Of a stretch of DNA of 64,000 nucleotides, positions 1,585 through 62,151 are shown piece after piece. The stretch covers positions 7,483,446 to 7,547,445 of the forward strand of contig CM119269.1 in the NCBI GenBank assembly GCA_051294375.1, read 5' to 3'. Positions within the stretch are counted from its first letter, which is position 1; each line of letters begins with the position of its first letter. The position numbers and the translations under genes are program-made. Under the pieces are notes generated by a model. The model worked only from the letters and a program-made list of their open reading frames with translations, searched no databases and was not told the origin of the DNA. This DNA is from Paraspadella gotoi (taxonomy: Eukaryota; Animalia; Chaetognatha).

Positions 1585-4500
1585 TCACATCTCACATCCG
1601 CTCACCTCCTTCTCTTCCCCACCGGCCGGGGAGTTGCAGTCCGAGGAGCAGTTGGAGCAGTCCGAGGAGCAAGAGTAGCCGCCGGGATTGAACTTGGAGC
1701 CGCCGGAAGAGCGGCCGAGAGAATGAACGTCGGTGAAGCAGACGAGAGGATTCGTGGCGTCAACGAGCCCCGGACTCAACGCCAGATGGCGATCGAAATC
1801 GGTAAACGGCGCCGCTCCAGACCCGGCGCTCCCCACCACGACGCCGGCGACGCCGTCTTCGTCCTCGGAAACGTCTGATCGCCGGCGTCGATGGCGCCGG
1901 GCGTGGCGCCGGAAGTGACAAGCGCCGAGGACGAGAATAGAGACGAGGATGGCGACGCCGAGAAGAATGAGGAGAAGGATCCACCAATCGTGAGTCAGAC
2001 TGAATCCGTGAGGATTTCGATGACGGAGATTGTCGAGTAGCTCGTCGATGTCGTTGTTGTCGTTGTTGTTGTTGTGATCGATGATTGGATCGTCGTCTTC
2101 GTCGTCCTCCCTCGCGATGAACGTCTCCACCCCGAATCTCTCCAAATCCGCGACGAGGCGGCTCCGCTTCTCTGCCGCGGCGTCGGGCTCCGTCACTTCC
2201 ACGACCACCGTCGCCGCCGCGCAGTTGGGCACCGGAAGCGAAGCGGCGCTCCCGGCGTCGATTCCGGCGGCGGCGGCGATCGTGGCGGCGCGATGCGCCA
2301 ACGTGGCCTGACGCTGACAGCTTTCGTCGACGCCGACTCCGACGTTGCCGACGCATTCGTCGCATACGACGTAATCGAAAGAGTCTTTGCCGACGTAGCC
2401 CGGCGGAGGACGGTAGAGGACGCTACCGTGACCGGGGATGACGATGATTTCGGCGCCCGCTGTCGTCGTCGTCGTCGTAGCGGCGTCACCGGCGTCATTG
2501 CCGGCGCCTCTGACAACGAGGCTGAGTTTCTGATCGTCCGCTTCGTCGTCGTTGTCGAGATCAGGATCTCCGTATTGATAGTGGACGGGCACGATGTCCG
2601 GCGCATCTCGCCCGACTATCCACGAGAGATTCCGGGCGAAAGGAGGATCGTTGACGGGCAGGATCTCCACCTCCACCCGCCCGTCCACGCATGCGCCGTG
2701 AGAGTCGCAAGCCGTGTATTCCAGGACGTCAGAGCCCCAAGCGTCCGGTCGCCCGCGGACGGAGAGACGTCCCGAGGCGGCGTTAAACGTTGCTCGGAGT
2801 TTTTGGGTCGTCTTCGACTTGAGACGAACGGCGCCGGACGCGACGGAGCCGTCCTCGACGTCGTCGAGCCACTGGAGGAGATCCACCGAGCCGGCCGCGT
2901 CTTCAACGATAACGAGACGTCCCGGCGCCGCGGTCGGGGCGTCGTTGACCGGCTGAACGACGACGGAGACGTCGACGGCCGTGCAGGCGGCGCCGTCGCA
3001 AACTTTGAGCTCGAAGACATCGGAATCTGCGTCGCTTTGAGTGAAGGAGTCCGTCGGCGGCGCGAAGGCGAAGACGCCGTTTGTGATGTTCCATCTGGCG
3101 CCGCCGACGCGTTTTGCGATGAGGACGGCGTCGGCGTCTCGAATGTCGCTGTCAGGATCGAAGACGTCGAAACAAGTCAGCAGCGGACAGACCACGCTCG
3201 CGTCCTCCAGGATGTGCAGCACCGGATTACGGACCCGAGGGGCGTCGTTTTCCGGCGAGACGTCCACGTGAAAGACTGCGCCGCTGCAGGCGCCCGCCGA
3301 GTCGCAGACGGTCAGGTTGACGGTCTCACGACCGAAGAAATCGGGCGGCGGAAGAAAGGAGAGGCGGATCTCTTCGAGAAGTCGGTCGCCCGCTCGCTCC
3401 TTCAAGCTGGAATCCATCCTCGAGATGCTGCTGTTCTTCGTCGTCGTCCAACTGATCGTCGACGGAATATTCTTCTCGATGTCAAAGACGATGATCTTCA
3501 CTTCTACAGAGTGATCTTCTTTGGTCGATAGAAAAGCGGGATTGCCTTCACCGTTGACATCCACGGCCGGCGGATCGTTGATCGGCGTCACCTCCAACGA
3601 AACCGCCGCCGGTTCGCTGCAGAGATTGTCCGTGTCGCAGGCGGAAAAGTTGAAACTATCCGCGCCGAAAAAATCCGCCTCGGGTTCGTAAACGAGAACG
3701 TTGTGACTGCGCAGGCGCAGTTTGCCTCGTTTGGGTTGCGTCACGAAACGGACGAACGGGTAACCGTCGAGTCCCGAGTCTTCGGCGTCGATCATGACTC
3801 TTTTAAGATCGATGACGACTTCGTGATCTTCTCCGAGTTTGAAGTGAACAGGCTGTTCGACTCGAGGCGCGTCGTTGACGGGCCGCAACAGGATCTTGAC
3901 TTCAAAGGGGGCGGAGCAGGCGTCGTCCGCGTCGCAGGCTTTCGCTTCTAATCGATCCATTCCGTGAAAATCGGCTTCGGGGACGAAAGTGATGTTGCGG
4001 TCCTCTTCGATCGTGACTCCGTGACGCGGGAGACGAACGACGGTAAAGGTGAGATCGTCAGTCACGTGATCAGGATCCTCGATGAATCTCAAGAGGTCGA
4101 GACGGAGCCTCTCGTCCTCGACTCCCTCGATCAAGATCGGCACCTCCGGATTCTTGACTCTCGGCGGGTCGTTGCGCTGCGAGACGTCGACGTCGACGCG
4201 GTATTCCCCGAACGCCCCGTCGACGTCGAAGAGTCTCAACGAGATCGTCCTCGTCGTCCGCTTCTCCGCCGTTTGGCTGCGGGAGCAAAAGCGGAGGCCC
4301 TTCAAGCGGCTCGTCCACTCGGAAGGCGTCAGGTTCTCTTTGACGATGAGGAGGGTGCGAGTGGTGGAGGGGCAGGAGGAGGAGGAGGAGGAGGAGGATC
4401 TCTTGGGTCGAGACGGAACAAAGAAAATGACGTCGCCATCTTGTCCGTTGATGATTTCGATCTCGGCGAGAGACAGGATTCCCGAATCACTGTCGCTGAT

Positions 4501-5550
4501 GAAGAAGTCGGCGGGAACGATAGAGACAGAGTCATCACCTTCGGTGTAGTCGATGAGTCCCAGCGGGGCGTCCGTCTCCATCATCGGAGGATCGTTCATG
4601 GTGCGAATCTCCACGTCGACCGACCCATCGGCGGAGAAAGTTCCGTCGCCGACGGAGATTTGGAAAGTCTTGGTGGCGTTGTCAACTTCCTCGGCGTCGT
4701 TGACGTAGACGATACCGGCGATGACCTCTTGATATTCCCGCAAGGGGGCGCGGCCTTCTATCCTGATGGCGCAACCGGAAGTGGCGTGTGTTACGCTAAG
4801 GCCGGGAATGTCTTGACGCGTGGCGCGAATTCGTTCGACGCCGTCTCCGCCGCATGGATGGAGTTGGATGAGGAAGCGATGGAGCGGGGCGTCGCCTTTG
4901 TCCAGATCGAGGATCTTGATTCGATCACCGACGAAACTCCCGTTGGAATTCTCCACGAAGATGATGGATTCGGAATTGTGGATGAGCGGAGGGTTGTCGT
5001 TGATCTGGACGACGTCGATGAAGACCGTCTCCACGTTGGAGTCGAATCCCTCCCCGTCCGTCACGCGCACCTCGACGATCCTCTTCCCCGGCTCCGGTTC
5101 TTCCGCCACGTTGATGTACTTGACGCAGCGCATGAGGTCTTCGTAGATGCGGACGGAGAAAGACCCGCTGATGTTGAAGAGGCAGGAGTCCGCGTTCCAA
5201 GAGATCGAGGGTTTTAAGCTGGAGAGGTAGCTGCAGTTGGCCGACGATCTGATGGGGGGAGGGAGCACAAAACATTTTTGTAAAAATTATTTCTAGAAAA
5301 CATAATTCAAAAAATCATCATTATTAATAGGTTGTATACCATCGGGAAAAAAAATATAATCATTGAATCTATATTTTTATTAATTAACAATTAAAAAAAA
5401 TTTTACGTCAATTTGTTCGTTGTTTGTCATGCCTTTTGTCATCAATTTACCGGTCGAGCTTGAAGGTCTCAAAATTGCAGTCTGCGAGGGGAGAATCGAT
5501 GCGCAGAGTCGCGGATCTCATGTTGAAGAGTAGTGGGTTGTCCTGAGAGA

Positions 5551-5620
<70 letters not shown>

Positions 5621-6230
5621 AATATAAAAATTGTTGTTAATCTCTATTTTCATCTCTGTTTAGTAATAAAAAAAAATATCATCCGCCCAAATTTCTAAAA
5701 GACAATTGAAAGTCAGAATTAAATACACTTTTAGTTAATATCTATTTTGATTGCAATGGTAAAAACGCTGTTGTTCTGCTAATTTTATAATCGTCGTCTA
5801 TCCCATTCCCTACTTGTCACATCTTTTATCCCACATCTTTTATCCCACGCTCCCCCTTTCTCACCTGATCGAATATCGTTGGCCGCGCCAAGACCGAGAT
5901 CGGCGCCCCGCCCTCCAAAAACTCAGCCCCTCGACTGATGACGTGCAGCGTGGGCGAGTGATCGCCCACGAGTCTCAGTTCGACGAGGATGTTGAGGGGC
6001 GCGCCGAGATCGGCTCCGTCGAAGGCGGAGACGGTGACGAGGCGGGGCGAGGGCTTCGGCTCATCGGCCTCGTTGACGTAACTGAGCGTGGCGAGGACTT
6101 GTTCGTAGATTTGAGTTGGGAGGCGAGTCGAATCAGAATCGTTTTTGCGGAGGGTGAGTCTGGGGAATGGAAAGGGAGGGTAAGGTTTTTTATTTCATTC
6201 TTTTTCCATTTTTGTTATCTAGCTCTAACA

Positions 6231-6328
<98 letters not shown>

Positions 6329-9300
6329 TCAAATATTCCCTGAGTCATACGCTGAGGAAGGCTTGCAAAAATTAAAAATCGTTGTTTGTTTACAATAACA
6401 GTTCCTTAACCGTTCTAATTTCAAATTAAATATTTTTGTATTTTTTCAATTCTTATGGCTTTTTACTCTTCCTTTTCTTTTAAACTTTAAAATTTTAAAT
6501 CAAATGTTTTCATTTTATTTTTTATAAACCTTTTTATTACCGAGTTCAAAAATCCTAATCACCTCGCATCATTTATAACACAATCTGATAACAACTCTCT
6601 CATAATAACTCTCCGACCCCCACTCCCTATTTCCCCCACCCGCCCTTCATCTCACCTATAGACCCTCTTCCCCGACGCCTCCACCGCCTCCACCAAAGCA
6701 AACTCCACCACGATCTCTTCCAAATTCTCTCCTCGACTCATCAGCGTCAGAAACTCTTCGTCTTTGTCCAACGCGTTCTCCAAGGAGACGTCCACGTATT
6801 CCACGTCGTCGTCGTCGATGTCCGTCAACGAGATGGCGCGTCCGCGCATGAGCGGCGTCCGTCCGCTGTTCTCCACGTAGGAGGTGCGGCATTGAGCGGC
6901 GGCTGCTTCTGCAGCGTCGGCTACGACTTCGGCTGCGTCGGCGCCGAGAGGCCGACAAGCGACGACGGGTGCGTCGTTGACCGGAAGGACGCGGACCGTC
7001 ACGTTGAGGATCTCTGCGCCAAACGGGCTACGCCCCTCTTCCTCCGCGCCCTCTACAGCTTCGGTGTCTTGGCCGTGGAGACCGACTCGCGCGCTCGTCC
7101 CGTTGGATCCGTCCCAGGCCCGCACTCGCAGCGCCGGCGCAGCGCAGCCCGGAGTCGTCTCGCACCGCACCGTATTAAAATCGGCGCCGGGAACGAAACG
7201 AATCCGGCAGGACGAGTCGAGCAGCGTAGCGCGCCGCGGCGTCGGCAGCGGCGGGGCCAGCGTGCCGAAGATCTCGTCGCCGATAAATCCTCGCCAAGAC
7301 GGCGCCGGCTCTGCAGCGTCGTCGACGGCGTCGCAGTCGGCGCCGCAGCAATGCTGCCAGACGCCGTGGGAGTTGTCGACGCCGATAACCGCAACGCCGG
7401 GGGTGGCGTCGGCGTCGGCGTCGTCAAAGATCCCGCTCAAAACGTTCCCGATGGGCGTTCCGGCGTTAGCGGCGTCGGCGGCGTCCTCTTCGACGTCTTT
7501 GATTCGTCCGTCGCTCGAAAGGCGAGGACGATCGTTGGTCATCTTCATCTCGACGACGACTTGGGCGACGGAAGAGTGAAGGTGGCCGTCGAAGGCGCGG
7601 AAGGCGATCACTCTGGGAGAATAGAATAGAATGGAATATGCAATGGAATAGAATAGGATAGAATAGAATAGAATAAAATAGAATATAATAGAATAGAACA
7701 GGTTAGAATAGCGTGGAATAGAATAGAGTATGGAGTATGGAGTATTGAGTATGAATGGAATAGAATAAAATAGAATAAAATAGAATAGAACAGAATAGAA
7801 CAGAACCGTACAGAACAGAACAGAACAGAACAGAACAGAACAGAATAGAATAAACCGGAATAGAATAGAATAGAATAGAATAGAATAGAATAGAATAGAA
7901 TAGAATAGAATAGAATAGAATAGAATAGAATAGAATAGAACAGAACAGAACAGATTATAATTTCCCCCTTTCTTTTTCCTCTACTTTCCTTTCCTCCCAT
8001 TTTCTTTCCTCCCCACCAACTCCACCCCTCCACCCCAAAACTCACCTCTCTCCCGGAACCGGTTCCGGCGCCTCGTTGAAGAACCTCATGGCGCGAATGG
8101 CGCGCAGGAAGGTGGCGCTGTTGTTGACGGCGCCGGTCGGGTCCTTGGGGACGATCATGAACTCTTTGGGACACGTGGCCTTGTGGACGAGTTTGACGGA
8201 GTTGCCAGCGTTGAGGAAGAGAACCTAGGGGTGGTGAAGGAGGAGGAGGAGGAAGAGGAGGAGGGGAAGGAGAAGAAGAAAGAGTTAAGAATTATTGGAA
8301 CCGCGCACTTTTGACTGACAGACGGACTAAAATACGGACAAACAGAGCGCTAACAAAACAGACGCATCCTGAGAACAGATAGCATAACAAACAGATGAAC
8401 AGACAGACCGACAGACACATAGAAAAACCGAACACAGAGAAAAACCGATACACAAAAAAATACCGAGAAATACATTGATACTGACTAACATACTGACAGC
8501 CAACCGATGGAAAAACCAACACATAGAAACACTCAGATAGACAGACAGATAAATAGACAGATAATTAGACAGTCGGACATGCTGACAGATTAAAAGACAG
8601 TCGGACAGCCAAACAGATTGACAGACTGACCTCATCCTGCTCGCACGATTCGTTCCTCCATTTTTCCTCCAAACGATTCAACTTCATCTCGATGGAAACG
8701 AATTGAATCTCCGCCGAATCCACGTCGAACAAAGCGGCGTCATCGGCGACCACGCTCACCGGATTCTGGCGCTCGAGATAAACGACGCGACCGTCGACGG
8801 CGCCGGCCGCGCCCACCCGGATGACGGGGGCGTCGTTGACCGGGTTGACGTGGACGGTGACGTCGTAGGCGACGGAGGAAAAGGCGTTGGCGTCGGTGGC
8901 GTTGAAGGAAGAGACGTCGACGCCGTGGCGCGGATGGGCGGCGTCGCGGGCGGCGTCGGTTCCATCCCAAGCCAGAATCTTCATCGATGGAATTCGGAAT
9001 TCTCCCGGCGTCGATCGAAAGTTAAAATCTTTCGCCGGCGCGAAGCGAATAGAACAAGCTCCAGGGAGGAGCGTTGCCGATTGGAGAGAGGGCGCTGGGG
9101 TGGCGTCGATGGCGCCGCCGCAGACGCTCGAGTCGCTGCCGTCGAAGGAACGCCACTTGGCGGAGTCGTCGCAACGCCATTGCCAAATGCCGAAAGCGGC
9201 GTCGACGACGACGACGGCGACGCCTGGAGGATCGCCATCTGGATCGTGGAATCCAGTCTTCAACATCGTGGAGATTTTGGTGCCAAAGTTGGAAGAGGAG

Positions 9301-11756
9301 GAGACATCCTCGTCGATCACTTGCAACTCCACCTTCCCGACAATGAACGGCGAATCGTTTTCGTTCTCCACGCGAATCTTCGCCACGCCCACTTCCGGCG
9401 AAAACGCGCCGCCGCCTTCTTTGTCCACGTCGACGTAGGATCCGGTGGCGCCGAACGCGTCGACGTCCCAAGCGCGGAACGTGAACGACGCCTCTCCGTG
9501 AAAATTGGACGCCGGAACGAAGCGGACGAGAACATCGTCGTCGGCGTCGTCGACGACGGCGCCGCTTTTGCCTAGAAGCAGCGCCGAGGAGCGAGAGATG
9601 GCGCCGAAGTTGCGCCACGCCAAGCCGTGAGCCTGAAACTGCCAGGCGCCGGCGTCGGAGTCGGCGTCGGTGACGGCGATGCCGACGGCGTCGCCCTCAG
9701 GGTCGACGAAGTGGCGCCGGAGGACGCCGAGTGGGAAACCGGCGTTGTCGGCGTCGTCTTCGGCGATGGAAGGGAGAGAGACGACGGTGTCGAGGATGCG
9801 GGGAGGGTCGTTGGTTTCCTGAGGAGGAGAAATGATAAGTTATCAATCAATCAAACAATCAATCAAACAATCAATCAAACAATCAATAAACAGAGATACA
9901 AATATGCAATCAATATATCAATAAAATATTTATTTAATCTCTCTATCAAACAGGGAAAAAGGTATTCAATCGATCGATCAATTACCCAATCACTTAATCA
10001 ATCAATGAATAAATCAATAAAAAAAATTAATAGATAAATAATTCTATCAATCAACCTAGGTTCCTATAAATCAAACAATCAAAATAAGAAACCATTACTC
10101 AATGAATCAATCAATTCTTGAAACAAACAAAACCAATCAAATCTTCCCCACCTGAACAATCAGCTTGAGCGTGACGGCGCCCTCGCTGAACGCCGATTGA
10201 CTTCCGGTGTAGGTGGCGTTGATGACGCCGCCGTCCGGAATCTTGTCCGTCCCTCCGGTCAAGTCCCAACAGACGACGGTGAGGAAGGTCTCGCCGGAAA
10301 AGTTTTCGTCCGGCAAGAAACGGAGGAAATTGTCCCATTTGGATCTTGGGAGGGGGAGGAGGAGGAGGAAGAGGAGGAGGAGCAGGAGGAGGAAGAAGAA
10401 AAGGAGGAGGAGGAGGTGGAGGGGAACGAAAAGGTTAGTAAAGGTAAGTTTAGGCGCGACAGAATTAGAAACAGGAATGACGACATCAATAAGACCAACC
10501 TCGTTCACATTCGATCATCAAAAACCACAATCACAACTCACAACTCACAAGAACCCCCCTTCACCACAAATCCTTTTTTTAAAACGAAAATCCACATTTC
10601 ACCCCAAACCCCATTTTTCACCACCATCCCCTACAAATTTCCCCACAACCCCCCCCCGACCTCCCCCCTCACCTCAGCGCCACCGCCGGAACCACCAACG
10701 AGGCGTTCCGCGGAATCTCTCCTCCGACGTCTCCCACGTAAGGATAAACGGCGTCGAGCTTGGTCCACGGCGCCGGATACGAGAGAAACTCCCACTGACC
10801 GCGCCGGTTATCGGCGCCGAGAACGGCGACGCCCTTTTCGGCGCCGGCGTCGCGATCCGACATGAGGGACCCGAAGAGCTCCTCCACGTTCATCGGGACG
10901 ACCTGATTGGCGCTGGAGTCTTCGAGGATGGAGCGGACGGAGGGACGCCGTCCCGGGAGGAAGAAGGGGGCGTCGTTGACGGAGACGACGTCGACGTGAA
11001 GGAGAAGAGGGGAACCGGGGGAAGAGCGGGGGTGGTGGGGGAGGCAGAGTGGACGAGCAGCTGCGGGAGAAGGGGAGGGGGTGGGAGGTGAGGGTGATGA
11101 CGACGACTATAACTACGACTATAACTAAAGCCACCCATCCCTCGACATACCTTGACGATCCGCCTCCCTGGCGAGGGCTCCTCGGCCGCGTTACGAAACC
11201 GAAGAGTCTTGACGACCGATTCCAAATCTCTGGCCGAAGATGCGCCGGCGACGCGAAGGGTCCCGTTGCGGAATGTCACGTCGGGGTAGGATAATTCCAC
11301 CTGGAGTGATGTGGGAGTGAAAGTGGGTAAGTGATGAGAGCTTAACATTATCACGTTATCAACATCAGAAAGATCACTAACAACGAAATCATCGTCAACA
11401 TCATCACAATAAACTTTCAACCCCATCAATCAACCACAGCACCATCAACCCCCTCACCTCCCGTCTCCGCCCTTCCACGGTCACGTTGTATTTCCTCTTC
11501 ACGACATCAACTTCCAAAATCTCGTAATTTCCGTTGAGACGATTCACGATCTTCGCCTCCACGAATTCCAGCTGCTGTTGCGGACGCGTCAGGAGCCGCA
11601 GGGAATCGCCGACGATGCGGACGGCGGGGCCGTCCTCCTTGAAGACGGACTTGACGGCGTCCATGGAGAAGGCGGGGAGGACGACGGCGGAACGACGACG
11701 ACGACGACGTTGCAGACGACGACGAAGATCGGCGAAAGAATCCACGGCGTCGTCGT
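1585..11756 (-). CDS. Giant single-pass membrane protein with tandem cadherin-like/bacterial Ig-like (Big_9/'VNDAP') repeats; 5'-partial. Exons: 11458-11756, 11151-11300, 10673-11060, 10152-10344, 8631-9818, 8046-8224, 6656-7612, 5865-6159, 5451-5542, 1585-5248
   Basis: All junctions are GT-AG with pyrimidine tracts. Phases join in frame (e.g. KLIVQ|ETNDPP, CEQDE|VLFLNAG, PVPGER|VIAFRAFDG, TIFDQ|DNPLLF, FKLDR|SSANC) apart from one 1-nt frameshift near 11040. About 16 modules end in V.xVNDAP/NDPP. TM helix WWILLLILLGVAILVSILVLGAC (about 1919-1987), basic stop-transfer HFRRHARRHRRRR, cytoplasmic tail of about 110 aa, stop at 1585. Strong GC3 coding bias. Confidence 0.9.
7618..7953. repeat. (AGAAT/AGAAC)n pentanucleotide microsatellite filling an intron
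   Basis: Directly visible tandem AGAAT units; reads as a pyrimidine-rich tract on the coding strand. Confidence 0.95.
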
Positions 11757-12400
11757 CTAAATAGAGAAAAGGAAATTGTTTATGTTTTGTTAAGTGAATA
11801 GTGTGGAATAATGTCTTAGTAGTTGAAATTTTTTTTTTATTATGCGTTGTGGTAGAAATATATTTATATTCTATGGCTAAATTGCGAATAAGATTTAAGT
11901 ATCGCCTTGAAATGAACAGTTCACAGTATACAAACTTCAGTTTGCCAGTTTGCTTATTGCTTTTGGATTGGAACAACGATGCCATAATTATTAGAAGTGG
12001 CTTTTTATGTGTCTAAGTTTAACTTCCCATCTGTACTCAACAGTTGGCCTTTTTACAACCTCATTGTTGGCCTTTTCACAATCTCACAATTGGCCTTTTC
12101 ACAATATCTTCCTCCGGCCCAAAAATCCGTTTCACGCGTTCATTGGATTCACGGGATTTTCCTCAGTCGTCGCTTCGATGATCACGAATGAATAAAAACT
12201 TTGTTGATAACAGATCAGAGATGAATGCGACTTTGATGAATACAAATGAATCGTTTAGGGACACGAAATGAATCTGGAAGCCTTAAAAAACCTTGAAGTC
12301 TCACCGCGTGAGAGAGTCATGGTTTCACAGAATCACGGCGCGATAAAGTTGGAAACAAAAGGTAAACAAGGACGACGTGTATCTCGGCATCTGTCGGAGA

Positions 12401-14599: not shown

Positions 14600-17346
14600 G
14601 AGAGACACAAAGGAAGGAAATATATATGGACATTGTTTATCATAGGTAGACTTTCTCGTATTACGACTCTTCGCCCCATCCTTTCTTTCCCTAGTTTATT
14701 CCATGGCAGTACATATCCATTATCTCATATCCTTCCAATATACCAGAACATGTGAAGTTCACTTTGTTTCCTTGTGGAGAACAAAACTTTGACAGAAATC
14801 TTTGCATCAGGCTTATGGCATCTGCAGATTACGAGAGTGGCGAAGATGAAATTCTCGATTGATGCGACGTCATGATCTGTCTTTTCCATTTCTCTTCTAT
14901 CTCTGTTTCCCCGTGCAAAGAATTTAGAGCTTCTTCGGGAAAAAACTCTCTGTTTGCGGAAAAGTTAAACATTCTCTCTCTCTCTCTCTCTCTTCTCTCT
15001 GCTCTCTCCTCTCTCTCTCCTCTCTCTCTCTCTTTCCTCTCTCGGTCTCTCATCTGTGCGTACAGGACGGACTGACCTAAAATTGACTGCCTTCTGAGAC
15101 CCTCATCGTCGTTGGGTCTTTGTTTTTTGGAAATCTTAGCCATGCATCGCTTTTTTCCTTTCTTTTTCTTAGTCAATCATCTTCATCATCGTCTTCGTCA
15201 TTGTCTTCCCGTCTTCACTGTTGCGTCGTCGTAGTCGGTCGTCGTCGTCGTCGATCGTCGTCGTCGTCGTCGCGGTCTACGGTGGTTTCGCCTATCTCGT
15301 CGTCAGTGGTCAACCACAATGCCGGGTGGGGATCCGACCTGCACGGCAAGCGTTGCCGTCAGTCCGTTGGGATGACTCCGATAACTAGTGGCAAGCCGGA
15401 GCTAAAGTACCGGGCGACAGCCATCGGGACCGGGAGAGGGGGCTAGCTACCCACCGTGACGGACTCTATCCGAGAAGGTCTGCAAACCGCAAAAAGTGCC
15501 GTGCGCATAGGCGTGGTAGGGAACATTACCGGCCCCTGTGTTGCCTGAGTGACTCGGCAAAAGTCGGAGCGGGCAGAAGGAATCCGACGTGAGCGGGGGA
15601 AATCACCTTAGACCCCCAGGACGGCTGGGACACCATCTTGGTCACTTGTGGAGAGGGAGGGGGTGAAGCCAAACAACACAGGTAGTGCAGGCCTAGGATG
15701 AAGTGTGAAGATAAACCAGGGTGGTTAGGTCGGAGGTGGTTACTCGAGATGGTGTCGCCAGCGGGGAAGAGAATTTTTCCTCAGGGACGTGGATTAAATG
15801 ATGGGGCGCGGCCCAGGGCAATCGTGAGACGGAGCAGAGATTCTTTTGCGGGGATCGTCCGGGAACTAGAAGGGGAGGAAGAGGATGAGGAGGGAGTGAG
15901 GGGAGGCAAGAGGGGAGGAGGAAGAGTAGAAAGCGAGAGTCATGATTAGGAAGAAAAGGAAAGAATGAGGGTTTTCTGTTGGTTTCCTTTTCTTGTCGTG
16001 ATAGGATGAGATGATTTGTCTGTGGAGGCGCGGAATAGAGATGGGATAGGAGATGCGGTTAGTCCTGTGGAAGGAGATTGGTAATAGAGAGTGGGTTAGT
16101 CTGTGGAAGGAGATGGATTGAGATGAGTTAGTCTGTGGAAGGAATGGGATAGAGTTTCAGGTTTTGTGCGACTGACCAGATTTTTTTTCCAAGTATGAGA
16201 GTTTATAAGAATAAAAACAAAAAAACACAAGACGAAAACCTCTCCCCAAATCCTCGGATCAACAGCGACGGTCAACTTTCTGCCAGTCACCAAAGACGTT
16301 TGGGATGAACGTAAACCGCTCGGAATTTCCTAGCTCGTTGTGCCTCGCTGGGGCGGCAGCCGGATGGGCAGACTTCGCTGGCGGCACGCCGCAATTGACG
16401 CGCGTCATCTGCGCAGAAATTGAAGCTGCTTTTTGGGTTAAGCGGATGGAATCGTGGGGTTGGAACCGATTGCTGAAAGACGACGATTTCCTTGTTTTGG
16501 AATCTGGAACATATGAAGCTCGAGTTTATATTTGGCGAAGAGACGGTTAATTTCGGAGAGTCGGACTGAATGGTCGTTTGAGTTATTGCATCGCGGTTCA
16601 TCGCGGATATTTCATTTTTTTTTTTCGTAACTTGATATATACAATTATACATATAATAAATGAATACCCTGCTGTTCATATATATACTATATACGGAGTT
16701 GAAATTTTGTATTGAATGCACTGTACGTCGACGATATTTTTTATTTTCTTCGTAAAAATTACACAGCGAACTCCCTTCAATCCGTCGTCTTTCGATTTCT
16801 TTTTAAATAAAATCGGCAGTTTTAGATTTTCTATCCTTTTTATTTTCAAAACATTCGTTACGTATTAATGAATTTTTTTAATGCAATGTTTTCATTATCC
16901 TCAAAAGCAAAATAAAATGAATTAAAGAAACAGAATTAAACGTAAAAACCGAAAAAGAAAACATTGAAAAAAAAACTCGAATCGAGAATAGGTAAAATTC
17001 TTTTCGTTAGTTAGCGTTCAATAATTAACCATAAATAATGATGATTTTAAGTTGATTTAGTTGAGCGTGAACAATTTGAGTTCTAGTATATTTCACCAAA
17101 ATATATGTATTGTTGGCTCCTATTAGTTTAATCATTAAATTTTATGACACGAACTGACTGAAACTGAAAACAAAAGATTAAATTTATTCTATATAAAAAA
17201 TGTAAATGAAAATTTGAAACTAAATAAAAACCGGAGGGAGTCGCGTGCTGAGGTATGACCGGAATAGAGAGAGAGAACGAGAGAGAGAGAGAGGAAGGAG
17301 AGAATGAGAGAAGAGGAGAAGAGAGAGAGAGGAGAGAGAGAGAGAG

Positions 17347-17377
<31 letters not shown>

Positions 17378-18470
17378 TGAGCTTGACGAGAGATTGATTT
17401 TCTCTTCAAAAGATACGTCATTTTGTTGTTTTTTAGTTTGATCGATTTTTTTTGTTCTTGGAGGATTTTAATTGGGGATCGTCACAAAAGGCGGAAAGCG
17501 CCCCGATGAGGTTTACGAACGGACGACATGACGACGACGACGGGAAGCGAAACCGGGCGCGATATTCGGGATTGATGATGATGATGGATTTAAAGGAGGA
17601 TCTACGCGTGGGTGGAATTGAAAGGAAAGGCGCGACTGAAGGACATTATAACATTAATTAACTATTTGCCTTCAAATAACCAAATTGTCATAAATTACGG
17701 TTAGTTTCAAACTTTCAATTAAAAAAAATAATCGCAATATTATCGACGATATATTTCGGGAAGACAATTTTCTTTCCGCTCCTCTATAATTAAAACCCTA
17801 CTCCGCGTTATTCTTTCTCTTTGTCCCTATTTTCCCGTTTCCACTGCTGTTAAAAAAATTTTCTTCTCTTTGTCCCTTTTTTTTTCCGTCTCCACTTGTC
17901 CTACTCGTTCCTTCTTTTTGTCCCATTTCCATCTCTTTGTCTTCCGCACGCAGACTCTCTGATTTCGATCTTCTTCTCGAGGCTTCAGAGACACTCAACG
18001 CTGCTCCTCCTGCGTGCGTCCTCCTCTCCTCCTCCTCTGGCGCTCCTCCTCCTCTCTCTCTGTTTCGTTCAATTTGAGACCCCGAAAGAATCGACATGGA
18101 TGTCAAGAGGAAAGAAGCCCCCCTTCCGCCCCTTTTATCTTTTCGCGTTCTGGCGACGTCGTTTTCAAAATGCGGGCAGATTTAGATGCCGCGCCGTGAC
18201 GTCAATTATATTATTTAATTTATTATAATTGTTTATATTTTAATATGTGACTAGAATAACACATTATACAAATTGAGACGTTGGTGTCTCGAAAAACGAT
18301 GATGATTATGAATAAAAAACAAAATACAAAAGAATTTAAATCTGAGAATAATGTCGTTTACTTTTTTACGAGACGGTGATTTTGGAAAAGTTGTTGTGAC
18401 ATCGCGGTGATAAAGTGTTCATCAACGTGAGAATACCAATGACTCGCCAATAATTGATGAAAACAAAAAG
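14600..18470. repeat. Left arm of a roughly 3.6-3.9 kb inverted duplication (partner 29070-32605)
   Basis: For example, 14821 TCTGCAGATTACGAGAGTGGCGAAGATGAAATTCTC matches the reverse complement around 32355-32390, and 18330-18360 matches 29282-29310. The copies differ by many small indels. Confidence 0.9.
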
Positions 18471-27789: not shown

Positions 27790-30289
27790 GAACTCTGACT
27801 CAAATTGAGAGGACGAGTGTCTCGGTCGGGACAACTTTGGCGTCGGCACGTGCCGAGAGGTAGACTGATGTTGTTGTTGTTGTTATCTTTTGTGTTGTAG
27901 TTCTTTTATCGTCAGATCGTGGATGGGTGGTATAGTGTATAGTATAGTATACACTGTATACCGTCTATGCTGTATACTATAGAGCGTTTATCATAAATGA
28001 AGTGTATGTCTTTTTTAATTTATAGCGAGAATGAAACACGAATTGAAGATTGGAATTTTTCAGAATGAATCATTGAAGCGGAAAAGGAGATTAACACCTA
28101 TTTGAAGGAGGGAAAGAAAGAAAGAAAGATAGAAAGAAAGAAAGANNNNNNNNNNGAGAGAGAGAGAGAGAGAGAGAGAGTATGAGGAGGTGTTGGGATT
28201 TCCCTTCTTTTCCATTATTCGGAGGATGACGCCGCCGCCGCCGACGACGACGACGACATCATAGATCGATTTTTTCCCTCTTCTTATCTTTCATCCCAAA
28301 ATTCCTTCTGCCAGTTTCGCAATCGAAACACAAACTCTGTCGTCGTCGTCGTCGTCGTCGTCGTCNNNNNNNNNNNNNNNNNNNNNNNNNNNNNNNNNNN
28401 NNNNNNNNNNNNNNNNNNNNNNNNNNNNNNNNNNNNNNNNNNNNNNNNNNNNNNNNNNNNNNNNNNNNNNNNNNNNNNNNNNNNNNNNNNNNNNNNNNNN
28501 NNNNNNNNNNNNNNNNNNNNNNNNNNNNNNNNNNNNNNNNNNNNNNNNNNNNNNNNNNNNNNNNNNNNNNNNNNNNNNNNNNNNNNNNNNNNNNNNNNNN
28601 NGGGTGGATAAAGAAGGGTGACTTCTTGAGTGGCGTCGGCGGACTGGCGACGGATTTGGAAACAGTTGCGATGGAACCTTGGATTGAACCTTGGATGGAA
28701 CCGACCAAAAAGCCTTTGAGAACAACGAGCATTGATTAAAGTCACGAAAAATGGAATAAGTTGACACGTCTTCACTGTGAGGCGGTGTCGGTCATATTAG
28801 CTTCAAGAAAGAATCTGATGACGAAATTCCGAGTGAAGGTCATCGAACGAAAAAAGGCAAATCTGGCAGAAGGAAGAGGTCATTGCATTTGGGGTCGAAA
28901 ATCGAGGTTGAGGGACGAAATCGTTTTGGTCAATTGAAATTCGTGTGAGGATCGGAATCGCCGATCACGATCTCACAGAATCTCAGGATTTTATCACGTT
29001 GTCGACAGATTCGATTTGAGTGAGTTATCTTTTGATCGTCGGTCACCGAGAAAAGGATATTTGATTTTGGATTTTTGGTTTCATCACATTATTGGTGTCA
29101 TTGGTCTTCTCACGTTGGAACACTTTATCACCGGATGTCACAACAANNNNNNNNNNNNNNNNNNNNNNNNNNNNNNNNNNNNNNNNNNNNNNNNNNNNNN
29201 NNNNNNNNNNNNNNNNNNNNNNNNNNNNNNNNNNNNNNNNNNNNNNNNNNNNNNNNNNNNNNNNNNNNNNNNNNNNNNNNNAAACGACATTTTCTCTAGA
29301 TTTAAATTCTTTGTATTTTGTCTTATCATAATCATCATCGTTTGTCGAGACACCAACGTTCAATTTGTGTGTTCTAGTCTAATATAATACATACATAAAA
29401 TATAACAATTATAATAAATTAAATAAATATAATTGTAATAATTGACGTCACGGCGCGGAATCTTATAATCTGCCCGCATTTTGAGAAACGACGTCGCCAG
29501 AAGCGAAAGATTAAAAGGGGGGCGGAGGGGGGGGCTTCGTTTCTCTTTGACATCCATGTCGATTCTTTTCGGGTCAATTGAAACGACAACAGAGCGGGGA
29601 GATGAGGAGGAGGAGGAGGAAGAGGAGGAGGAGGAGGAGGAGCAGGTGAAGTGTCTCGAAGCCTCGAGGAAGAAGATCGAAAATCGAGAGTCGCGTGGCG
29701 GGAAGACAAAGAGATGGAAATGGGACAAAAAGAAAGGAACGAAGATAGGACAAAGTGGAGACGGAAAAAGGGACAAAGAGAAGAAAATTTTTTTAACAGA
29801 GTGGAAATGGGAAAAGGGACAAAGAGAAGAATAACGGGATAAGGGTTTAATTATAGAAGGAGGAAAGAAAATTGTCTACCGAGATTTTATCGTCGATAAT
29901 ATTGCGATTTTTTTTTTTATTTGAAAGTTTGAAACTAACGTAATTTATGACAATTTGGTTATTTTGAAGGCAAATAGTTAATAATGTATAATGTCCTTCA
30001 GTCGCGCCTTTCCTTTCAATTCCACCCACGCGTAGATCCTCCTTTAAATCATCATCATCATCAATTCCGAATATCGCGCCCGGTGTTCGCTTCCGTCGTC
30101 GTCGTCGTCGTCGTCGTCACCGTCATCGCGGGGCGCTTCCGCCTTTTGTTGACGATCCCCAATTAAAATCCTCAAGAACAAAAAAAATCGATCAAAAATA
30201 AAAAAAACACAAAATACGTATTCTTTTTGAAGAGAAAATTGCAATCTCTCGTCAGCTCATCTTCTCTCTCTCCTCTTCATCCTCTCTCT

Positions 30290-30327
<38 letters not shown>

Positions 30328-31069
30328 CTCCCTCTTCTCTCTCTTTTCTATCTCTCTATCCGGTCAATACCTCAGCACGCGACTCCCTCCGGGTTTTATT
30401 TTTAGTTTCAAAATTTTCTATTACATTTTTTTTTAGAATAAAATTTAATCTTTTGTTTCAGTTTCAGTTTCAGTTTTCGCGTCATTAAACTAAATAGGAG
30501 AAAAAATACATATATTCTGGTTGAATATACTAGAACTCAAATTGTTCAACGCTCAACTAAATCAACTAAAATCATCATTATTATGGCTAATTATTGAACG
30601 CTAACTTTAACGAAAGAACTTTACCTAATTCTCGATTCGAGTTTTTTTTTTCATGTTTTTTCTTTTTCGGTTTTACGTTCAATTCTGTTTTCTTTAAATC
30701 ATTTCTTATTTTGTTTTGAGGATAATGAAAACATTTGATAAAAATTTTCATAATACGTACGAAATGTTTTGAAAATAAAAAGGAATAAAAATCTAAAATC
30801 TGCGATAAAAGAAATCGAAAGACGACGGATTAAAGGGAGTTCGCTGTAATTTTTACGAGAGAAAATAAAATATATCGTCGACGTACAGTGCGATTCAATA
30901 CAAAATTTCAACTCCGTTATATAGTATATATATGAACAGCAGGGTATTTCATATTATTATATGTATAATTGTATATATATCAAGTTACGAAAAAAAAAAT
31001 GAAATCCGCATGAACCGCGATGCAATAACTCAAACGACCATCAGTCCAGACTCTCGAAATAACTCTCTT

Positions 31070-31330
31070 TTTCTCAATAAAACTCGAGCTTCATATTTCC
31101 AGATTCCAAACAAGAAATCGTCGTCTTCAGCCAATTCGGTTCCACCCCACGATTCCATCCGCTTAACCCAAAAAGCAGCTTCAATTTTCTGCGGCAGATG
31201 GTCGCGCCGTCAATTGCGGCAGTGCCGCCAGCGAAGTTGCCCATCCGGCGCCGCCAGCGAGGCACGAGCGAGGAAATTCCAGCGGTTTACGTCATCAACG
31301 TCTTTGGTGACGGCAGAAGTTGACCGTCGC
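31070..31330 (-). CDS. Candidate exon with indel errors (…TKDVDDVNRWNFLARASLAAPDGQLRW…IEAAFWVKRMESWGGTELAEDDDFLFGIWKYEARV…)
   Basis: CAG acceptor near 31331 and protein-like, Trp-rich translation with a frame break. A noisy inverted copy lies at about 16262-16545. Confidence 0.3.
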
Positions 31331-31449
31331 TGTTGATCCGAGGATTTGGGGGGTTTTTGTTGGTTTTTTTTTGTTTGTTTTTTTGTTTTTTATTCTTTAT
31401 AAAACTTCATACTTGGAAAAAAATCTTCAGGTCGCAACAAACCTGGAAC

Positions 31450-31570
31450 TCTATCCCAGCTCCTTCCACAGACTAACCCATCTCTATCCCATCTCCTTCC
31501 ACAGTCTAACCCATCTCTATCCCATCTCCTTCCACAGACTAACCCATCTGTATCCCATCTCCTTCCACAG
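31450..31570. repeat. 33-bp minisatellite (CTATCCCATCTCCTTCCACAGACTAACCCATCT), about 3.7 copies, running into a gap
   Basis: Tandem units directly visible. Confidence 0.85.
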
Positions 31571-31904
31571 ANNNNNNNNNNTCTATCCTATCACGAACAA
31601 GAAAGGAACCAACAGAAAAAACCCTCATCTTTTCCTTTTCTTTCCTTAATCATTGACTCTCGCTTTCTACTCTTCCTCCTCCTCCTCCTCCTCATCCTCC
31701 TCCTCCCCTTTTATTCGGACCCAAAAATGTCCCAATTATCGGAAATTCTCTTCCCCCGCTGGCGACCACCATCTCGAGTAACCACCTCCGACCCATAACC
31801 ACCCTTTTCCCCTCACTGCTGCCCCTTTGGGTCTTCCACTCGTCCTCTTGGGCTCTGCCCCTCTGGCACGGAGCAGCATTGTTCAAGATTCTTCGGGGGC
31901 TTGA

Positions 31905-39138: not shown

Positions 39139-39372
39139 CCAAAATCGGCAGAGCTGCGGCGCTTGACCGAACGGATTCCTCTCGAAGGCCGCTGGACCGA
39201 GAAGAGTCGAGGAGAGCGCTCGATCGAAGATCGCGAGTGGGAAGGCAAAGGCGCTGGCTCGATCCCAAGATTAGACCCTCGCCCGAATCGATCCGGTGGT
39301 TGTCGTCGTTGTCGTTGTCGTTGTTGTGGATGGGAGAGTCTAACGCCGACCAGACGCTGATGGTGCAGCAGA
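39139..39372 (-). CDS. Candidate internal exon (reading frame uncertain)
   Basis: Pyrimidine tract plus CAG acceptor, strong donor GG|GTGAGT at 39137-39138, GC-rich, two frames open. Confidence 0.35.
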
Positions 39373-46388: not shown

Positions 46389-49300
46389 TCACGCCATTTC
46401 TCGCCACGATCTCACTTGAGTGATTCGAGGCGGCAACTGCAGAGTGCAGCACATGATGCCGGCGATATTGCGGGAAACCTAAAGGGAGGAAGAGATCAAA
46501 CAATTCATTCGTCCACTCCAATGGGGAACGTGGCCTCTCACCTTGGCGTCCATGACTTCCCATCGGTCCTTCTCCACGTCGTACCGTTGAATGAGATCAA
46601 GGAAATTCCGAGAGTTCCAAGTGTAACCGCCGATGTTACAGATGAAACTTAAAGACCGATTATAATTAAATTGACACATGAATATAAATTTCGCCTAGCA
46701 GAAAAACACCCGCAACTTACCCGTGAAAGTAAACGGGGAAAGTGTGTCCCTGACCCCGACACATCGAGGTGAGCGTCGTCCACTGCTCCGTCTCCGGGTC
46801 GAAACACTCGGTGCTGAGAGCGTCGCATCTGAGGGCGTTGCTGTTGACGTAGTTCCCGCCGAAAACATAGATCTACGAAATTATACATTTATTTTATTAC
46901 AAAACAAAACGAAATTATACATTTATTTTATTACAAAACAAAACGAAATTGTACATTTACTTTATTACAAAACTAGATACTAATTTCCACCTTGTCTCGA
47001 ACGGAAACCATCCCGTGATACATCCGCGCGCGCATCATGGAGAGTTTCGTCGACCACTGATCATCCTTTGGGCTGTAGCACATGAACTTGTTGGAGACGT
47101 GGCCCGACAACGAGCCCCCGCTGTGCAAAGCACGGGGAGAGGTGAGTTTGAGTAATTATAGAAAAATGGATAAAGGGAAATGGAAAGAGAGAAATAGCAA
47201 AAACCAAAGAAAAAAAAAAACATTTCTAAGCTCGTCGGTCGTCACGTCCACCTGATGTAGACGTTTCCTTTAGCAACGCAGCCCGCGTGACCGTGGGTCG
47301 AAGCCGACAATGGAGCGATGTACTCCCATTTATTTTTCTTGAAATCGTACTGAAAAGGGCAAAAAGATGTGCGAATAGCGATACAGAGAGCGAGTCAACG
47401 AGCTTTTTCTATGAAATTGGTACAACCAATATAAAAATTATCCATTCATTTAATAAATAAGCTATCTTGCCCCTGACTTTGGACAGGCTTTGGTGGTTAA
47501 GGCCTCCATCACTCTTACAAGATAATGACATAGCATATATTACCTTCTCGGCGGTGGAGAGGGAGCCGAAGCGGTTCCTTCCGCCGACGGCGACGACGTG
47601 GTGACCTACGGCCATCGCGCAGAACGTCGCCCTCTCCTCGTTCATCGACGCCATTTGCATCCACGTGTCGAAGTTGGGGGAATACCTGAAGGCGGGGAAA
47701 AGTAAGGTTTTCGGAACGTTGAAACAGGGGTCGCTTTAAACCACATAACAAAATCGTCAGCTTAAAAAATAGAGGCACATTGGAAAAATAATAATAATAA
47801 TAATAATAAAGATAAACGAAAAGAACCACACCGGTGGTCAGAATCGCGATTATGTTAACAATCCCAACGATTCCATTCTCAAAAATTAGAAGTTAATAAC
47901 AACAACAACGACTTCAACCTATAGACGTGTTTGACGGCGTGGCGATCGTTGGTGCATCGATCCGAATCGCCGCCGAGAACGAAGAGGAAATTCTGATAGA
48001 CGACGACGGCGCCGTAAGCGTGAGGGATGGCCATCTCAGTGAGCCGCTTCGACTTGGACGTGAACGTCCCGTTCTCCATGTCGAGATAGTCGATCTGAAA
48101 GAGAGAGGAGCGGAGAAAGAGGCTTGTGAGGGTGACAATTTATATTGGTGCCTCCCGCATCCCCAGTTTCCACCTGTTTGATGAGGGGCAGGGAGGAGTC
48201 TTCCGGGTTTCCGCCGATCGTAATCATGTGCGTCGTGGATCCCCTGAAAAAACCAAAAGACTCGATCAATGAAGACGACCAAATGATCTTCGTCTAAAAA
48301 GATCATCAACTCACCTGGGTTGGGTCAAGTGGGAGCTCATGAGGGGCTGGAGGGTGGGTTTGAGATGAAAGTTCATGGCTTGAAAGAGGAGTTTGGCGCA
48401 GGACTCGTTGGCGGCCATGACCTTGGCCTGTTGCACGTGCTCGATTATTTCGTCAGGGGTCATCACAGAAAAACTAAGAGAGAAAGCAGAGAAAGGTGTG
48501 GGATTAGAATGAGCCGAGATATATCCAATTTTGTTGTTTATAGTTTTACTGTCAATAGTTTTACTGGGGTTGCAGTTTGCCACAGTTTGTTTTTAAAGAA
48601 AAATGATTCCTCGAACGATAGAGTTGATTCAAAAAATAAAAATTCATTAAAAAAGAATCGGGATGTTAAATGAACGCTTTATGAGGCGTCCTTAGCGCTG
48701 CTCCCTACCGTTTCCCTCCCTTAACCAAATTCAATTCTCCCCAAATCAAAAATTAATAAGGAAATAAAAAACAAAACAAAAGCAAAACAAAAAGGGAAGG
48801 CGAGAAAACTTGAGCCACGAAAATGGCGACGGCAGCTCAGAGGGAGGCGGACCGGAAGTTGAAGGAGAAGGAAATGCGCCAAGCCATCAATCAGAGGCTA
48901 AAGGAATCCGGAGAGAGGGATAAACTCAAGGTGCGTTAGGGAGTGAGGTGGCGTTTTGTGGAAGAGGATTATGAAGTATGTGGATCTTGTGGACATGAAA
49001 TTCATCAATGGATTGATCCGAATAATAATTAACTAATTTACTGAAAGAATTTGTGGTGATGGTGATGATAGTAAAATATGATAAAGTAATTCACAAGAAT
49101 GGCCATGGTTCAGGACCTTCTGCGGCAGCGGCTGATCGAGTGCGGGTGGCGCGATGACATGAAGGCCTACTGCAAGCAGCTGATTAAGGAGCGCGGTCTG
49201 GAAAACATCAACATCGACGAGTTGGTCGAAGTGGGTTTTCGATTGTCAGTAAAAAAAAAATAACGAAAAAGAAAAACACATGTAAAATAGAAATGAAGAA

Positions 49301-51797: not shown

Positions 51798-53247
51798 CGT
51801 CAAAGATTTCGATTCCTAGATTCGATCTCGATCATTTGAGTCGTTGGCGGGGTCATGTTAGAGGAAGGGGGCGTGGCGCGAATCGAAGACAAGACTCCGC
51901 GCCTTTTTGACTCTCAGTGTATTGAATTACATAGAACGGGGTCGCCGAATAATCTAGTTTAGTGAAGAAACTAAACACCAAATATACCTGACGAAAGAAA
52001 AAAAACTAGGAGAGGTACACAAAATAAAAACACAAACTATAATGTAATAATATAGATAAAATATAGAGAACAAATGTCAACGTTTAATAATTTTATAGCA
52101 GTGATTGGAGGCAGTTACGAAAATACCAACAGAGGTGAGCGTTGATTTATAATTACTGATAATTATAAAACAGAGGGGGAATATTTAAAACCAAACTCCG
52201 GTCGACTAGAAAAGGTAGAAAAGTGCGTATATCATAAATTGGCTTATTTGGTTTATCAATAGACCGATACGATCGTTGACGGTTAGAATATGTTTGAGAC
52301 AATGTTTAAAACGCTTAGGTTGTCCGATTGGTTTGATTCAAAAAACCATTGGCACATGTTCTCTGGGTTAAAAAAAGTCTTTGCGAGTCAGAAGAAAGTG
52401 CGAAGCTTGAAAAAGGTGAAACATATAACTAAAATCCGAACTCCTGTCTCGTTTTTGGTTTCATAACCTCCAAAGATTTCAAATAATTCATTTCGCGTCA
52501 AATGAACAGAAAATAGTATAAAAATGTTCTTAGGGACGTACAAAACGTTTTAAAAAAAAATCCCCTTAATACCAAGAACTAGGATTCCTAGTAAGAACAA
52601 AATAAAATTTCAAAATAAAAACTTTGTAAAGTTTGTATACGACACTGGATGTGTTACAATTTGTATTTTCAAGGTTGTTTCAAAAACTATATTAAGAAGT
52701 TACGTACATAAGGTTGTTTTAAAAACACAGGTAAAAAGTAAACGTTTGTAAAGCCAGAGTGGAATGCAAATAAGGAATGACAATACTGAACACAAATATC
52801 AACCATTACTTTTAAGCTTTTATATTTGGGATACTCTACTGAGATCGGATATTGGTAATAAATCTGCTTTAAGTAACAACACACAAGAATAACTAAAGCA
52901 GATTTTTTTAGAATGGACAAAAAATAAAATCATTATGAGATTATTTTAAATAGTCGTGTAAAGAAAGAAAACACAGAGGTAGGAAATGTCCAATATCCAT
53001 GTTACTTTGTCTAAAAAATTAAATTAAAAAAATTATTTATTTGGATGTATTTACTTAAACGAAGTTGTCTTACGAAAACCTAGAAGAGCCAACAATTAAA
53101 ACATGGTAGGAATTATCTACAAATTTGTATTTAATGCCAATGTAAAATAAAAATGTCAGGCGAAAAAAGGGAATAGTTATAAAAGAATTCATTGACAGCT
53201 TACTTTCAGTTGTTTAGGTAATACTAAAAATTTAAAAAAAGTAAATA

Positions 53248-53882
53248 CAGAAGGCTTCATATTATAAAATGAGGTAACAGTTTTTTTGTGACCAGAACAC
53301 GTTCCGAGAAAACTACGGGTCCAAATTCATTGAAATTTGGTATGAATGATCATTATGCGAATATAAATAGAACTATCGAGGCGAATTTCAATATTTGACC
53401 CCTAAGCCGAGATATGGGGGTCAACCATCGGGGCAAAAAATGTTAAATTTTTTAAATTATTTTTGTTTTGAACTGTTACCTCAAAAATATTAGTTTACCT
53501 TAATTTTCAACTTCATGAACATCAGCAGTTCAAGTCAGATTTGTATATTTTGGAAAAATTTATTAGTAAAATGAGCAATTGAGCATGCATCTTCAAACAA
53601 TGCTTAAATTTTTAATAATTATCAATTTTAGTTCTAAAATGTTTTTTTACATGTTTAAGACGTCAATGCACCTGATGCTACTAAAAATATTAAAATATAA
53701 AGAAAAAATTTAGCCTTTTTTGGTTCCCTAGGGGTCCAGCCCCAGGGGTTGATAATTAAAATTCGCCTGGATAGTTCCATTTATATCGTCATAGGACTAT
53801 ATGTAAAATTTCATAAAATTCGATCGGGTAGTTTGGTGAGAACAAAAAAGGGGTACCTCATTTTATAATATGAAGCCTTCTG
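53248..53882. mobile_element. Non-autonomous Tc1/mariner-type MITE, 635 bp
   Basis: Perfect 29-bp TIR CAGAAGGCTTCATATTATAAAATGAGGTA (53248-53276 / 53854-53882), TA on both flanks, imperfect inverted similarity extending about 150 bp inward, no ORF. Confidence 0.88.
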
Positions 53883-55077: not shown

Positions 55078-57263
<2,186 letters not shown>

Positions 57264-57489
57264 TTAGGAGTCGGTTGACACGAGACGAGAAAACGGGATG
57301 CGAGGTATTAATTACAGGCATGTGCTTGACACGAGTTTCTGTTTATTTGTTTGCATACACGAAAAACGTTAGTGAACTGTTAAACGAAAACAATGATTAA
57401 GAAAAACTTGACAATAAAAAAACCGAGGAACATGAAAATGGACGATTGAAAATGTGATCAAAAGATAATCTGCAAACAGGAATCTGTCT

Positions 57490-60575: not shown

Positions 60576-62151
<1,576 letters not shown>

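Follow-up and report, generated by a model that had tools for sequence, protein, structure and literature searches.

The locus described here raises the question of how an animal comes to carry a gene for a giant receptor assembled from repeats of the bacterial adhesin type. The gene lies at positions 11756-1585 on the minus strand of a 64,000-nucleotide stretch of DNA (referred to as the window) from the chaetognath, or arrow worm, Paraspadella gotoi (assembly GCA_051294375.1, contig CM119269.1, positions 7,483,446 to 7,547,445 of the forward strand). A sequence-only reading had offered two origins, horizontal acquisition with domestication in this animal lineage or an ancient gene that was patchily retained. 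Our analysis favors the second. It is a spliced gene for a single-pass membrane protein with 16 bacterial-adhesin-type repeats, probably a fast-evolving and shortened member of an uncharacterized family. This family likely goes back to the last ancestor that animals share with choanoflagellates, and the protein is predicted to form a calcium-stiffened adhesion stalk.

The gene model comprises ten GC-rich exons; the introns between them are rich in microsatellites. Each of the nine introns starts with GT and stops with AG, in agreement with the earlier claim of an intron-containing animal gene. The joined frame is open over 2,482 amino acids (aa), a minimum length for the protein, when exon 3 begins at 11106; the coding sequence of ~7.4 kb is stop-free, and eight of the nine junctions are in phase. 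The G+C content at third codon positions was 0.75, compared to 0.72-0.84 in six neighboring exon slices. Cutting at NDxP-type linkers yielded 16 modules, arranged as A B B B A B A A A A C C C C C C, and the resulting six A, four B, and six C modules matched the three types and approximate numbers given before. A single hydrophobic transmembrane (TM) helix, likewise predicted earlier, follows at ~aa 2350-2372 and leaves a C-terminal tail of 110 aa. An NDxP-type linker opens 15 of the 16 modules (A0 has none in the model), and a DxD/E motif occurs in 15 of 16. The A and B domains are 135-186 aa long and contain large inserts.

Pfam profiles were run separately on each of nine exons, that is, all except the 30-aa exon 9. 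Big_9 (PF17963) matched six stretches in exon 10 with 159 bits (cut-off 23.6), and the NCBIfam tandem-95 profile (NF012211) reached 182 bits (cut-off 90). Both curated cut-offs were thus passed, as expected from the identification of C as a Big_9/tandem-95 repeat. Exon 10 also had matches to Cadherin_4 and Cadherin_5, profiles that scored 92 and 85 bits, respectively. No match to the classical cadherin repeat PF00028 at E 0.1 and none to a catenin-binding domain was obtained in the exons scanned, nor was an LDRE/LDYE motif found, in line with the view that this is not a classical cadherin. In the same exons, Cadherin_3 gave just 16.8 bits (cut-off 25.5), and Calx-beta, CLSTN_C, laminin-G, and EGF gave no match. 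Sequence searches of the PDB with exons 10 and 5 returned no match at E 1. Pfam and NCBIfam profiles, protein searches, and the ESM Atlas agreed that the repeats resemble those of bacterial giant proteins. An AlphaFold2 model of B2-B3, based on a 40-row alignment, had a predicted local distance difference test (pLDDT) score of 86.6 and a predicted template-modeling (TM) score of 0.78. Cadherins dominated the Foldseek and VIA lists for this model, with tandem domains, ~100 residues aligned per domain, and large inserts; the best structural match had a Z of 8.1 and a root-mean-square deviation of 4.7 over 204 residues. B2-B3 is therefore predicted to fold like two tandem cadherin domains. The proposed structural check thus supported a cadherin-like fold for this pair of B modules.

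At E 0.001, exon 5 had 2,477 protein matches, and among the 150 listed the highest summed scores belonged to repeat-rich giants outside the family. When the full spliced model was compared with 170 proteins by blastp, the nine best matches were members of one family, long and richer in cysteine, and eight of the nine carry a C-terminal TM helix. The amphioxus protein scored 518 bits and the hemichordate proteins 380 and 363 bits, compared to 257 bits for the first protein outside the family. Named members are KAI8492147 (Branchiostoma belcheri), XP_070566489 (Ptychodera flava), XP_002741598 (Saccoglossus kowalevskii), and XP_062517662 (the sponge Corticium candelabrum) as well as two choanoflagellate proteins from EukProt, Salpingoeca infusionum P005495 and Bicosta minor P002279. 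All six are uncharacterized giant single-pass proteins of 4,497-6,753 aa and share with the window copy the succession of A, B, and C modules, the B subtype signatures, and the single C-terminal TM helix. The window protein is colinear with that of amphioxus module for module, except that it lacks the juxtamembrane portion, two of the A modules, and a seventh module resembling C. The named members differ in having an N-terminal region (SibA-like plus P_proprotein-like in amphioxus), which was not found for the window copy within the window, and a juxtamembrane module of ~600 aa. The profile of the latter matches the window copy at columns 1-151 of 702 only, and C6 nearly abuts the TM helix in one exon. 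As C6 runs almost straight into the helix and the juxtamembrane module is missing, we regard the window copy as a shortened variant.

Module by module, the window protein was scored against 79 family and 276 other proteins, the latter set having been enlarged by 120 exon 10 matches. The best score was to the family in 13 of the 16 modules. Family B modules fall into three positional subtypes, each present in both choanoflagellates and animals. With subtype profiles built without the window sequence, B1, B3, and B4 were assigned to their own subtype well above the non-family profiles; B3 reached 135 bits with its family profile and B4 143 bits, compared to 63-74 and 60-69 bits with non-family profiles, whereas B2 tied (99 versus 97-104 bits). 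In an IQ-TREE analysis of 73 B modules, B1 was sister to B1 of Ptychodera (99/95) and B3 to B3 of amphioxus (99/90), and both B3 and B4 fell into a family-only clade of 17 rows that includes choanoflagellates (99/99). The tree of the membrane-proximal block (29 rows, rooted on choanoflagellates) separated Corticium with unnamed rows (97/97) and then joined the window to amphioxus and the hemichordates (84/97). Taken together, colinearity, module scores, the B tree, and the block tree make a recent transfer into this lineage very unlikely. The colinear orthologues in amphioxus, hemichordates, sponge, and choanoflagellates, along with a gene tree that follows the species tree, give no support to the option of horizontal acquisition with domestication within this animal lineage, and the same distribution of orthologues supports the alternative of an ancient, patchily retained gene.

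Several observations weigh against this assignment. Three modules, B2, A5, and C1, score slightly higher to non-family proteins (65 versus 59, 22 versus 20, and 39 versus 31 bits). The per-module matches and trees proposed as a check place 13 of 16 modules, and B1, B3, and B4 in particular, on the side of the family, with B2, A5, and C1 as exceptions. Rankings by whole-protein score place non-family giants of the bacterial type with many repeats first. B2 had no resolved position in the 73-module tree, the bootstrap of which had not settled, and in a FastTree of 285 rows both B1 and B2 had non-family rows around them, a placement that carried no starred support. The window branch in the 29-row tree is long (2.06) and compositionally odd; this copy evolves fast. 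The fold scores are moderate (Z 8.1, TM score 0.33) and concern B2-B3 only. Finally, in a sequencing run guessed to be RNA (X1), no contig bridges two exons and the exon 2/3 junction is uncovered. For the suggested verification of splicing by RNA sequencing, the evidence is weak: the X1 pieces lie mostly on exons and one ends at donor 10673, but none spans a junction.

The sequence-only reading had taken paired cysteines and N-glycosylation sequons as animal additions. A cysteine pair in the third B subtype is indeed specific to the family (48 of 49 family modules, 1 of 149 non-family modules). However, choanoflagellates already carry it, and the pair must therefore predate animals. The cysteine pair of the C modules is widespread, being present in 63 of 86 modules of the family and in 465 of 1,979 outside it. 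Sequons occur at 9.8 per 1,000 aa compared to a non-family median of 13.9, which gives no indication of an animal adaptation. Based on this frequency and density outside the family, the C-module pair and the sequons were rejected as marks of domestication.

The juxtamembrane module is common to 60 of 225 proteins; most of these lack a taxon label, and the unlabeled ones placed on the tree group with Corticium. A search for it yielded 29 matches among 5,897 candidates, none of them a named cnidarian, protostome, echinoderm, or vertebrate protein, in a search that was word-based and length-limited; this result suggests patchy retention of the family and does not show absence. As an arrow worm gene, the window copy would be the first protostome member among the matches. 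P0025, P0031, P0034, and their relatives in the sponge clade appear as single open frames of ~6,000 aa with a triplicated A-A-A-B-B-B block, which suggests that these members are encoded by an almost intronless 18-kb coding exon. A sub-module of ~100 residues from the juxtamembrane region occurs in P0204 (a kelch protein of the amoebozoan Mastigamoeba balamuthi), P0224, and P0225. P0307 (4,530 aa) combines IPT/TIG, CLSTN_C-like, and P_proprotein regions with two B modules, i.e., the same repeats in a different architecture. A scan of metagenome contigs with exon 10 gave 374 pattern matches and no confirmed relative.

Known systems share some features with the gene and differ from it in others. 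Bacterial giant tandem-95/cadherin-like adhesins are close in their repeats, as C passes the cut-offs and A and B are clearly homologous; unlike these, the window gene has spliceosomal introns, a type I TM helix with a cytoplasmic tail, and a third B subtype with a family-specific insert and cysteine pair. Calsyntenins consist of two cadherin repeats, a laminin-G domain, and CLSTN_C. The hemichordate orthologues pass CLSTN_C (PF19699) with 49 and 46 bits against a cut-off of 27, their best stretches lying in the A region, whereas the window exons match neither CLSTN_C, PF00028, nor laminin-G and the architecture differs. Giant non-classical cadherins, namely Fat, Dachsous, CELSR, and cadherin-23 along with coherin, lefftyrin, and hedgling of choanoflagellates and sponges, resemble the window protein in carrying a long cadherin-fold array on a single TM helix, and the B2-B3 model matches domain pairs of CELSR1 and cadherin-23 with a Z of ~8. 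In contrast to these giant cadherins, the window protein shows no PF00028, EGF, laminin-G, or catenin-binding match, and its A and B domains have large inserts. Coherin, lefftyrin, and hedgling are each recognized by their own defining domains. FRAS1, FREM, and CSPG4 are animal surface or matrix proteins with bacterial-like cadherin repeats, namely Cadherin_3 (CSPG) repeats, joined by Calx-beta in FRAS1/FREM. They were the top ESM feature matches of exon 10 (0.89, a lead only), but Cadherin_3 stayed below its cut-off in the window protein and Calx-beta did not match. Of the outcome named earlier as refuting a foreign gene, half was found: a vertical phylogeny, in a family that is uncharacterized and is not FRAS1/FREM, calsyntenin, or protocadherin.

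Inheritance from the animal-choanoflagellate ancestor leaves the origin of the family itself to be considered. An early choanozoan may have captured a bacterial giant adhesin gene and added a membrane anchor and a tail, a scenario that is compatible with our explanation for the window gene and that we hold to be a real, though not the favored, possibility. The proteins outside the family are mostly without a taxon label and presumed bacterial, and B modules were mapped on the first 225 proteins only. Among them, A, B, and C modules occur together in 11 non-family proteins, and B look-alikes in the ESM Atlas are mostly bacterial, chiefly from Planctomycetota clusters; these two observations make capture of a whole adhesin before the choanoflagellate-animal split plausible. 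In addition, the full juxtamembrane module was seen in the family only, the Mastigamoeba protein having ~105 columns of it. Uptake of cadherin-like domains by bacterivorous Filozoa has been discussed and proposed in the available text of PMC8164589, and a Salpingoeca rosetta screen, as far as its available text goes, flags other cadherin and tandem-95-like proteins as foreign, with five rows of different architectures (PMC7971027). However, no bacterial donor clade was resolved, the non-family rows mostly lack names, and the 73-row tree, on which the family B modules require three changes, neither demonstrates nor rules out a single origin for them. In plants, GEX2-type clusters contain Big_9-type repeats as well, and module A is similar to the C-terminal domain of calsyntenins; accordingly, the repeats may belong to a common pool of great age. 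In its fullest form, the capture scenario holds that the animal-choanoflagellate ancestor took up a whole bacterial A/B/C adhesin, anchored it in the membrane, and used it for prey capture or for holding cells, that the resulting receptor persists in choanoflagellates and sponges as well as in amphioxus, acorn worms, and this animal, and that the C-terminal domain of calsyntenins may derive from it. We put this forward tentatively and consider it doubtful as a whole.

With regard to function, calcium bound at the acidic NDxP, ED, and DxD linkers would stiffen the ectodomain into a rod of roughly 70-80 nm, given 16 domains at ~4.5-5 nm each. Bacterial cadherin-like/Big_9 repeats mediate calcium-dependent adhesion according to the available text of PMC12153261, and by analogy we infer a similarly stiffened rod for the window protein. 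A polybasic furin-type site precedes A0 in exon 1, and both hemichordate orthologues have RxRR just before the same module; cleavage there would trim off the N-terminal part. A second cut site of the hemichordate proteins lies in the juxtamembrane module, near the membrane. As that module is missing, the site would have been lost with it and the window copy would stay anchored with its tip trimmed. The inserted loops of its B domains would then bind a partner cell, matrix, or glycans. We favor surface adhesion as its function, the main rival being capture or uptake.

According to this rival, the family is a receptor for capture or uptake of bacteria or particles in feeding or immunity, rather than for cell-cell adhesion, and the window copy keeps that role. 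The six named carriers are all suspension or deposit feeders. The tails of the choanoflagellate and sponge-clade members contain one to five copies of DPF, an AP-2-binding motif, and PF24907, the N-terminal domain of Dictyostelium SibA, is present in the amphioxus protein. Loss of SibA impairs adhesion and phagocytosis, as stated in the available text of PMC9197732. In contrast, DPF and NPxY are absent from the window tail, the SibA-like head was not found within the window, and an arrow worm is a predator. We consider such a role unlikely, and adhesion remains the preferred interpretation.

The details of the gene model (Table 1) bear on whether the window copy is intact. Exon 1 begins at a splice acceptor and the model contains no signal peptide, indicating that the gene is incomplete at its 5' end. 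Trans-splicing is common in chaetognaths (PMC12460157, available text). It could account for the acceptor ahead of exon 1, but the protein would then be without a signal peptide. The acceptor of exon 3 at 11060 is the stronger one, yet it is out of frame with exon 2; the acceptor at 11106 is in frame and implies an intron of 44 nt. Reading through a one-base slip in a C-rich run gave 63 bits with the family profile compared to 59 bits for the 44-nt-intron version and retained a four-residue match to the Ptychodera module. The slip thus appears slightly more likely from these sequence comparisons.

Table 1. Positions in the window of the exons of the receptor gene and of an upstream candidate.
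Feature	Position	Strand	Content and remarks
Exon 1	11458..11756	-	Internal exon starting in phase 1, bounded by an AG acceptor and a GT donor; polybasic furin-type site, then start of module A0
Exon 2	11151..11300	-	Second half of module A0; matches amphioxus 1089-1206
Exon 3	10673..11106	-	Last part of A0, first half of B1; uncertain whether it starts at 11106 or 11060
Exon 4	10152..10344	-	Second half of B1
Exon 5	8631..9818	-	B2, B3, first half of A1
Exon 6	8046..8224	-	Second half of A1
Exon 7	6656..7612	-	End of A1, B4, first part of A2
Exon 8	5865..6159	-	End of A2, start of A3
Exon 9	5451..5542	-	Middle of A3; 30 aa; frame-compatible on both sides
Exon 10 (3.7 kb)	1585..5248	-	End of A3, A4, A5, C1-C6, acidic linker, TM helix, 110-aa tail, stop
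Candidate upstream exon (unproven)	39139..39372	-	Phase 1/1, which fits exon 1; the 27 kb between the two are rich in repeats and gaps

Run X1 contains 12% of the sequence words. Among its low-depth contigs, seven of the eight longest pieces lie on exons. One at 11455-11624 overlaps exon 1, one stops exactly at the exon 3 donor 10673 with seven letters unaligned, one at 5996-6161 overlaps exon 8, and four lie on exon 10. The remaining piece, at 12135-12300 upstream of exon 1, may be an untranslated-region exon, pre-mRNA, a repeat, or DNA. Upstream of 11756, neither tblastn with 21 proteins of the family nor an N-terminal profile gave a credible match within the window; the signal peptide and N-terminal head had no match in this upstream part, a stretch with eight N gaps and duplicated sequence. 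The candidate exon listed in Table 1 is the sole acceptor-donor-bounded stretch above the coding-score filter in 11757-46000 and matches neither Pfam nor the family. Together with 40501-40096 on the same strand, 39372-39139 is coding-like and phase-compatible without a Pfam match; the two stretches may belong to a separate gene or to the missing 5' end of this one. At 41644-41530, a stretch resembling a signal peptide was rejected: its coding score is -0.2, its phase does not fit the candidate exon that follows, and it is perhaps derived from GTC repeats. An inverted duplicate of ~2.5 kb with 86% identity occupies 15889-18359 and 29282-31706, and the eight N gaps lie within 19.6-31.6 kb; this duplicate and gap region looks error-prone or mis-assembled.

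The exon 2/3 frame conflict that arises if the strong acceptor is used and the failure to find the signal peptide and N-terminal head are further points on the debit side, and along with the missing juxtamembrane module and the long branch they could indicate a decaying pseudogene. Nevertheless, ~7.4 kb of coding sequence is free of stops, eight of nine junctions are in phase, the calcium-type linkers are kept, the nearby assembly is error-prone, and the exons carry low-depth contigs from a sequencing run that is probably RNA, so that we consider decay improbable. Least credible, to the point of being scarcely tenable, is that this animal lineage recently acquired the gene from a bacterium and then gained introns, cysteines, and glycosylation sites, since the bacterial-type Pfam/NCBIfam matches, the lead of bacterial giants in whole-protein rankings, and the 3 of 16 modules scoring best to non-family proteins are opposed by positional orthology with amphioxus and hemichordates, a gene tree following the species tree, the presence of the family-specific B insert and cysteine pair in choanoflagellates, and a sequon density that is not raised.

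Further along the window, 46700-62150 contains compact ordinary genes encoding a BTB-kelch protein, EnY2, a CaMK-like protein kinase, and TFIIIC subunit 6, as well as actin, identified by eye. The animal neighbors asserted earlier were thus recovered.

No description of the family was found in the literature searched, although subscription papers or the gene-family tables of PMC6040629 may hold one. No papers were found for four accessions, and the available part of the hemichordate genome supplements (PMC4729200) had no match for cadherin, calsyntenin, adhesin, or the Saccoglossus locus number. The ancient family to which we assign the window gene thus apparently comprises undescribed, non-canonical cadherin-fold receptors that predate animals. 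Counts of cadherins based on PF00028 would miss it. The available text of PMC6792448 describes a domain survey with a filter that drops mostly prokaryotic domains, and surveys of this kind possibly miss the family too. For alien-index screens the gene is a caution, as whole-protein scores put bacteria first for a vertically inherited gene. The origin of cadherin-type adhesion and its exchange with bacteria is treated as an open question in the available text of PMC8164589. To this question the family adds a single traceable case, in which one colinear architecture extends from choanoflagellates to bilaterians while the same repeats are combined in bacterial giants, and one that is testable in culturable choanoflagellates.

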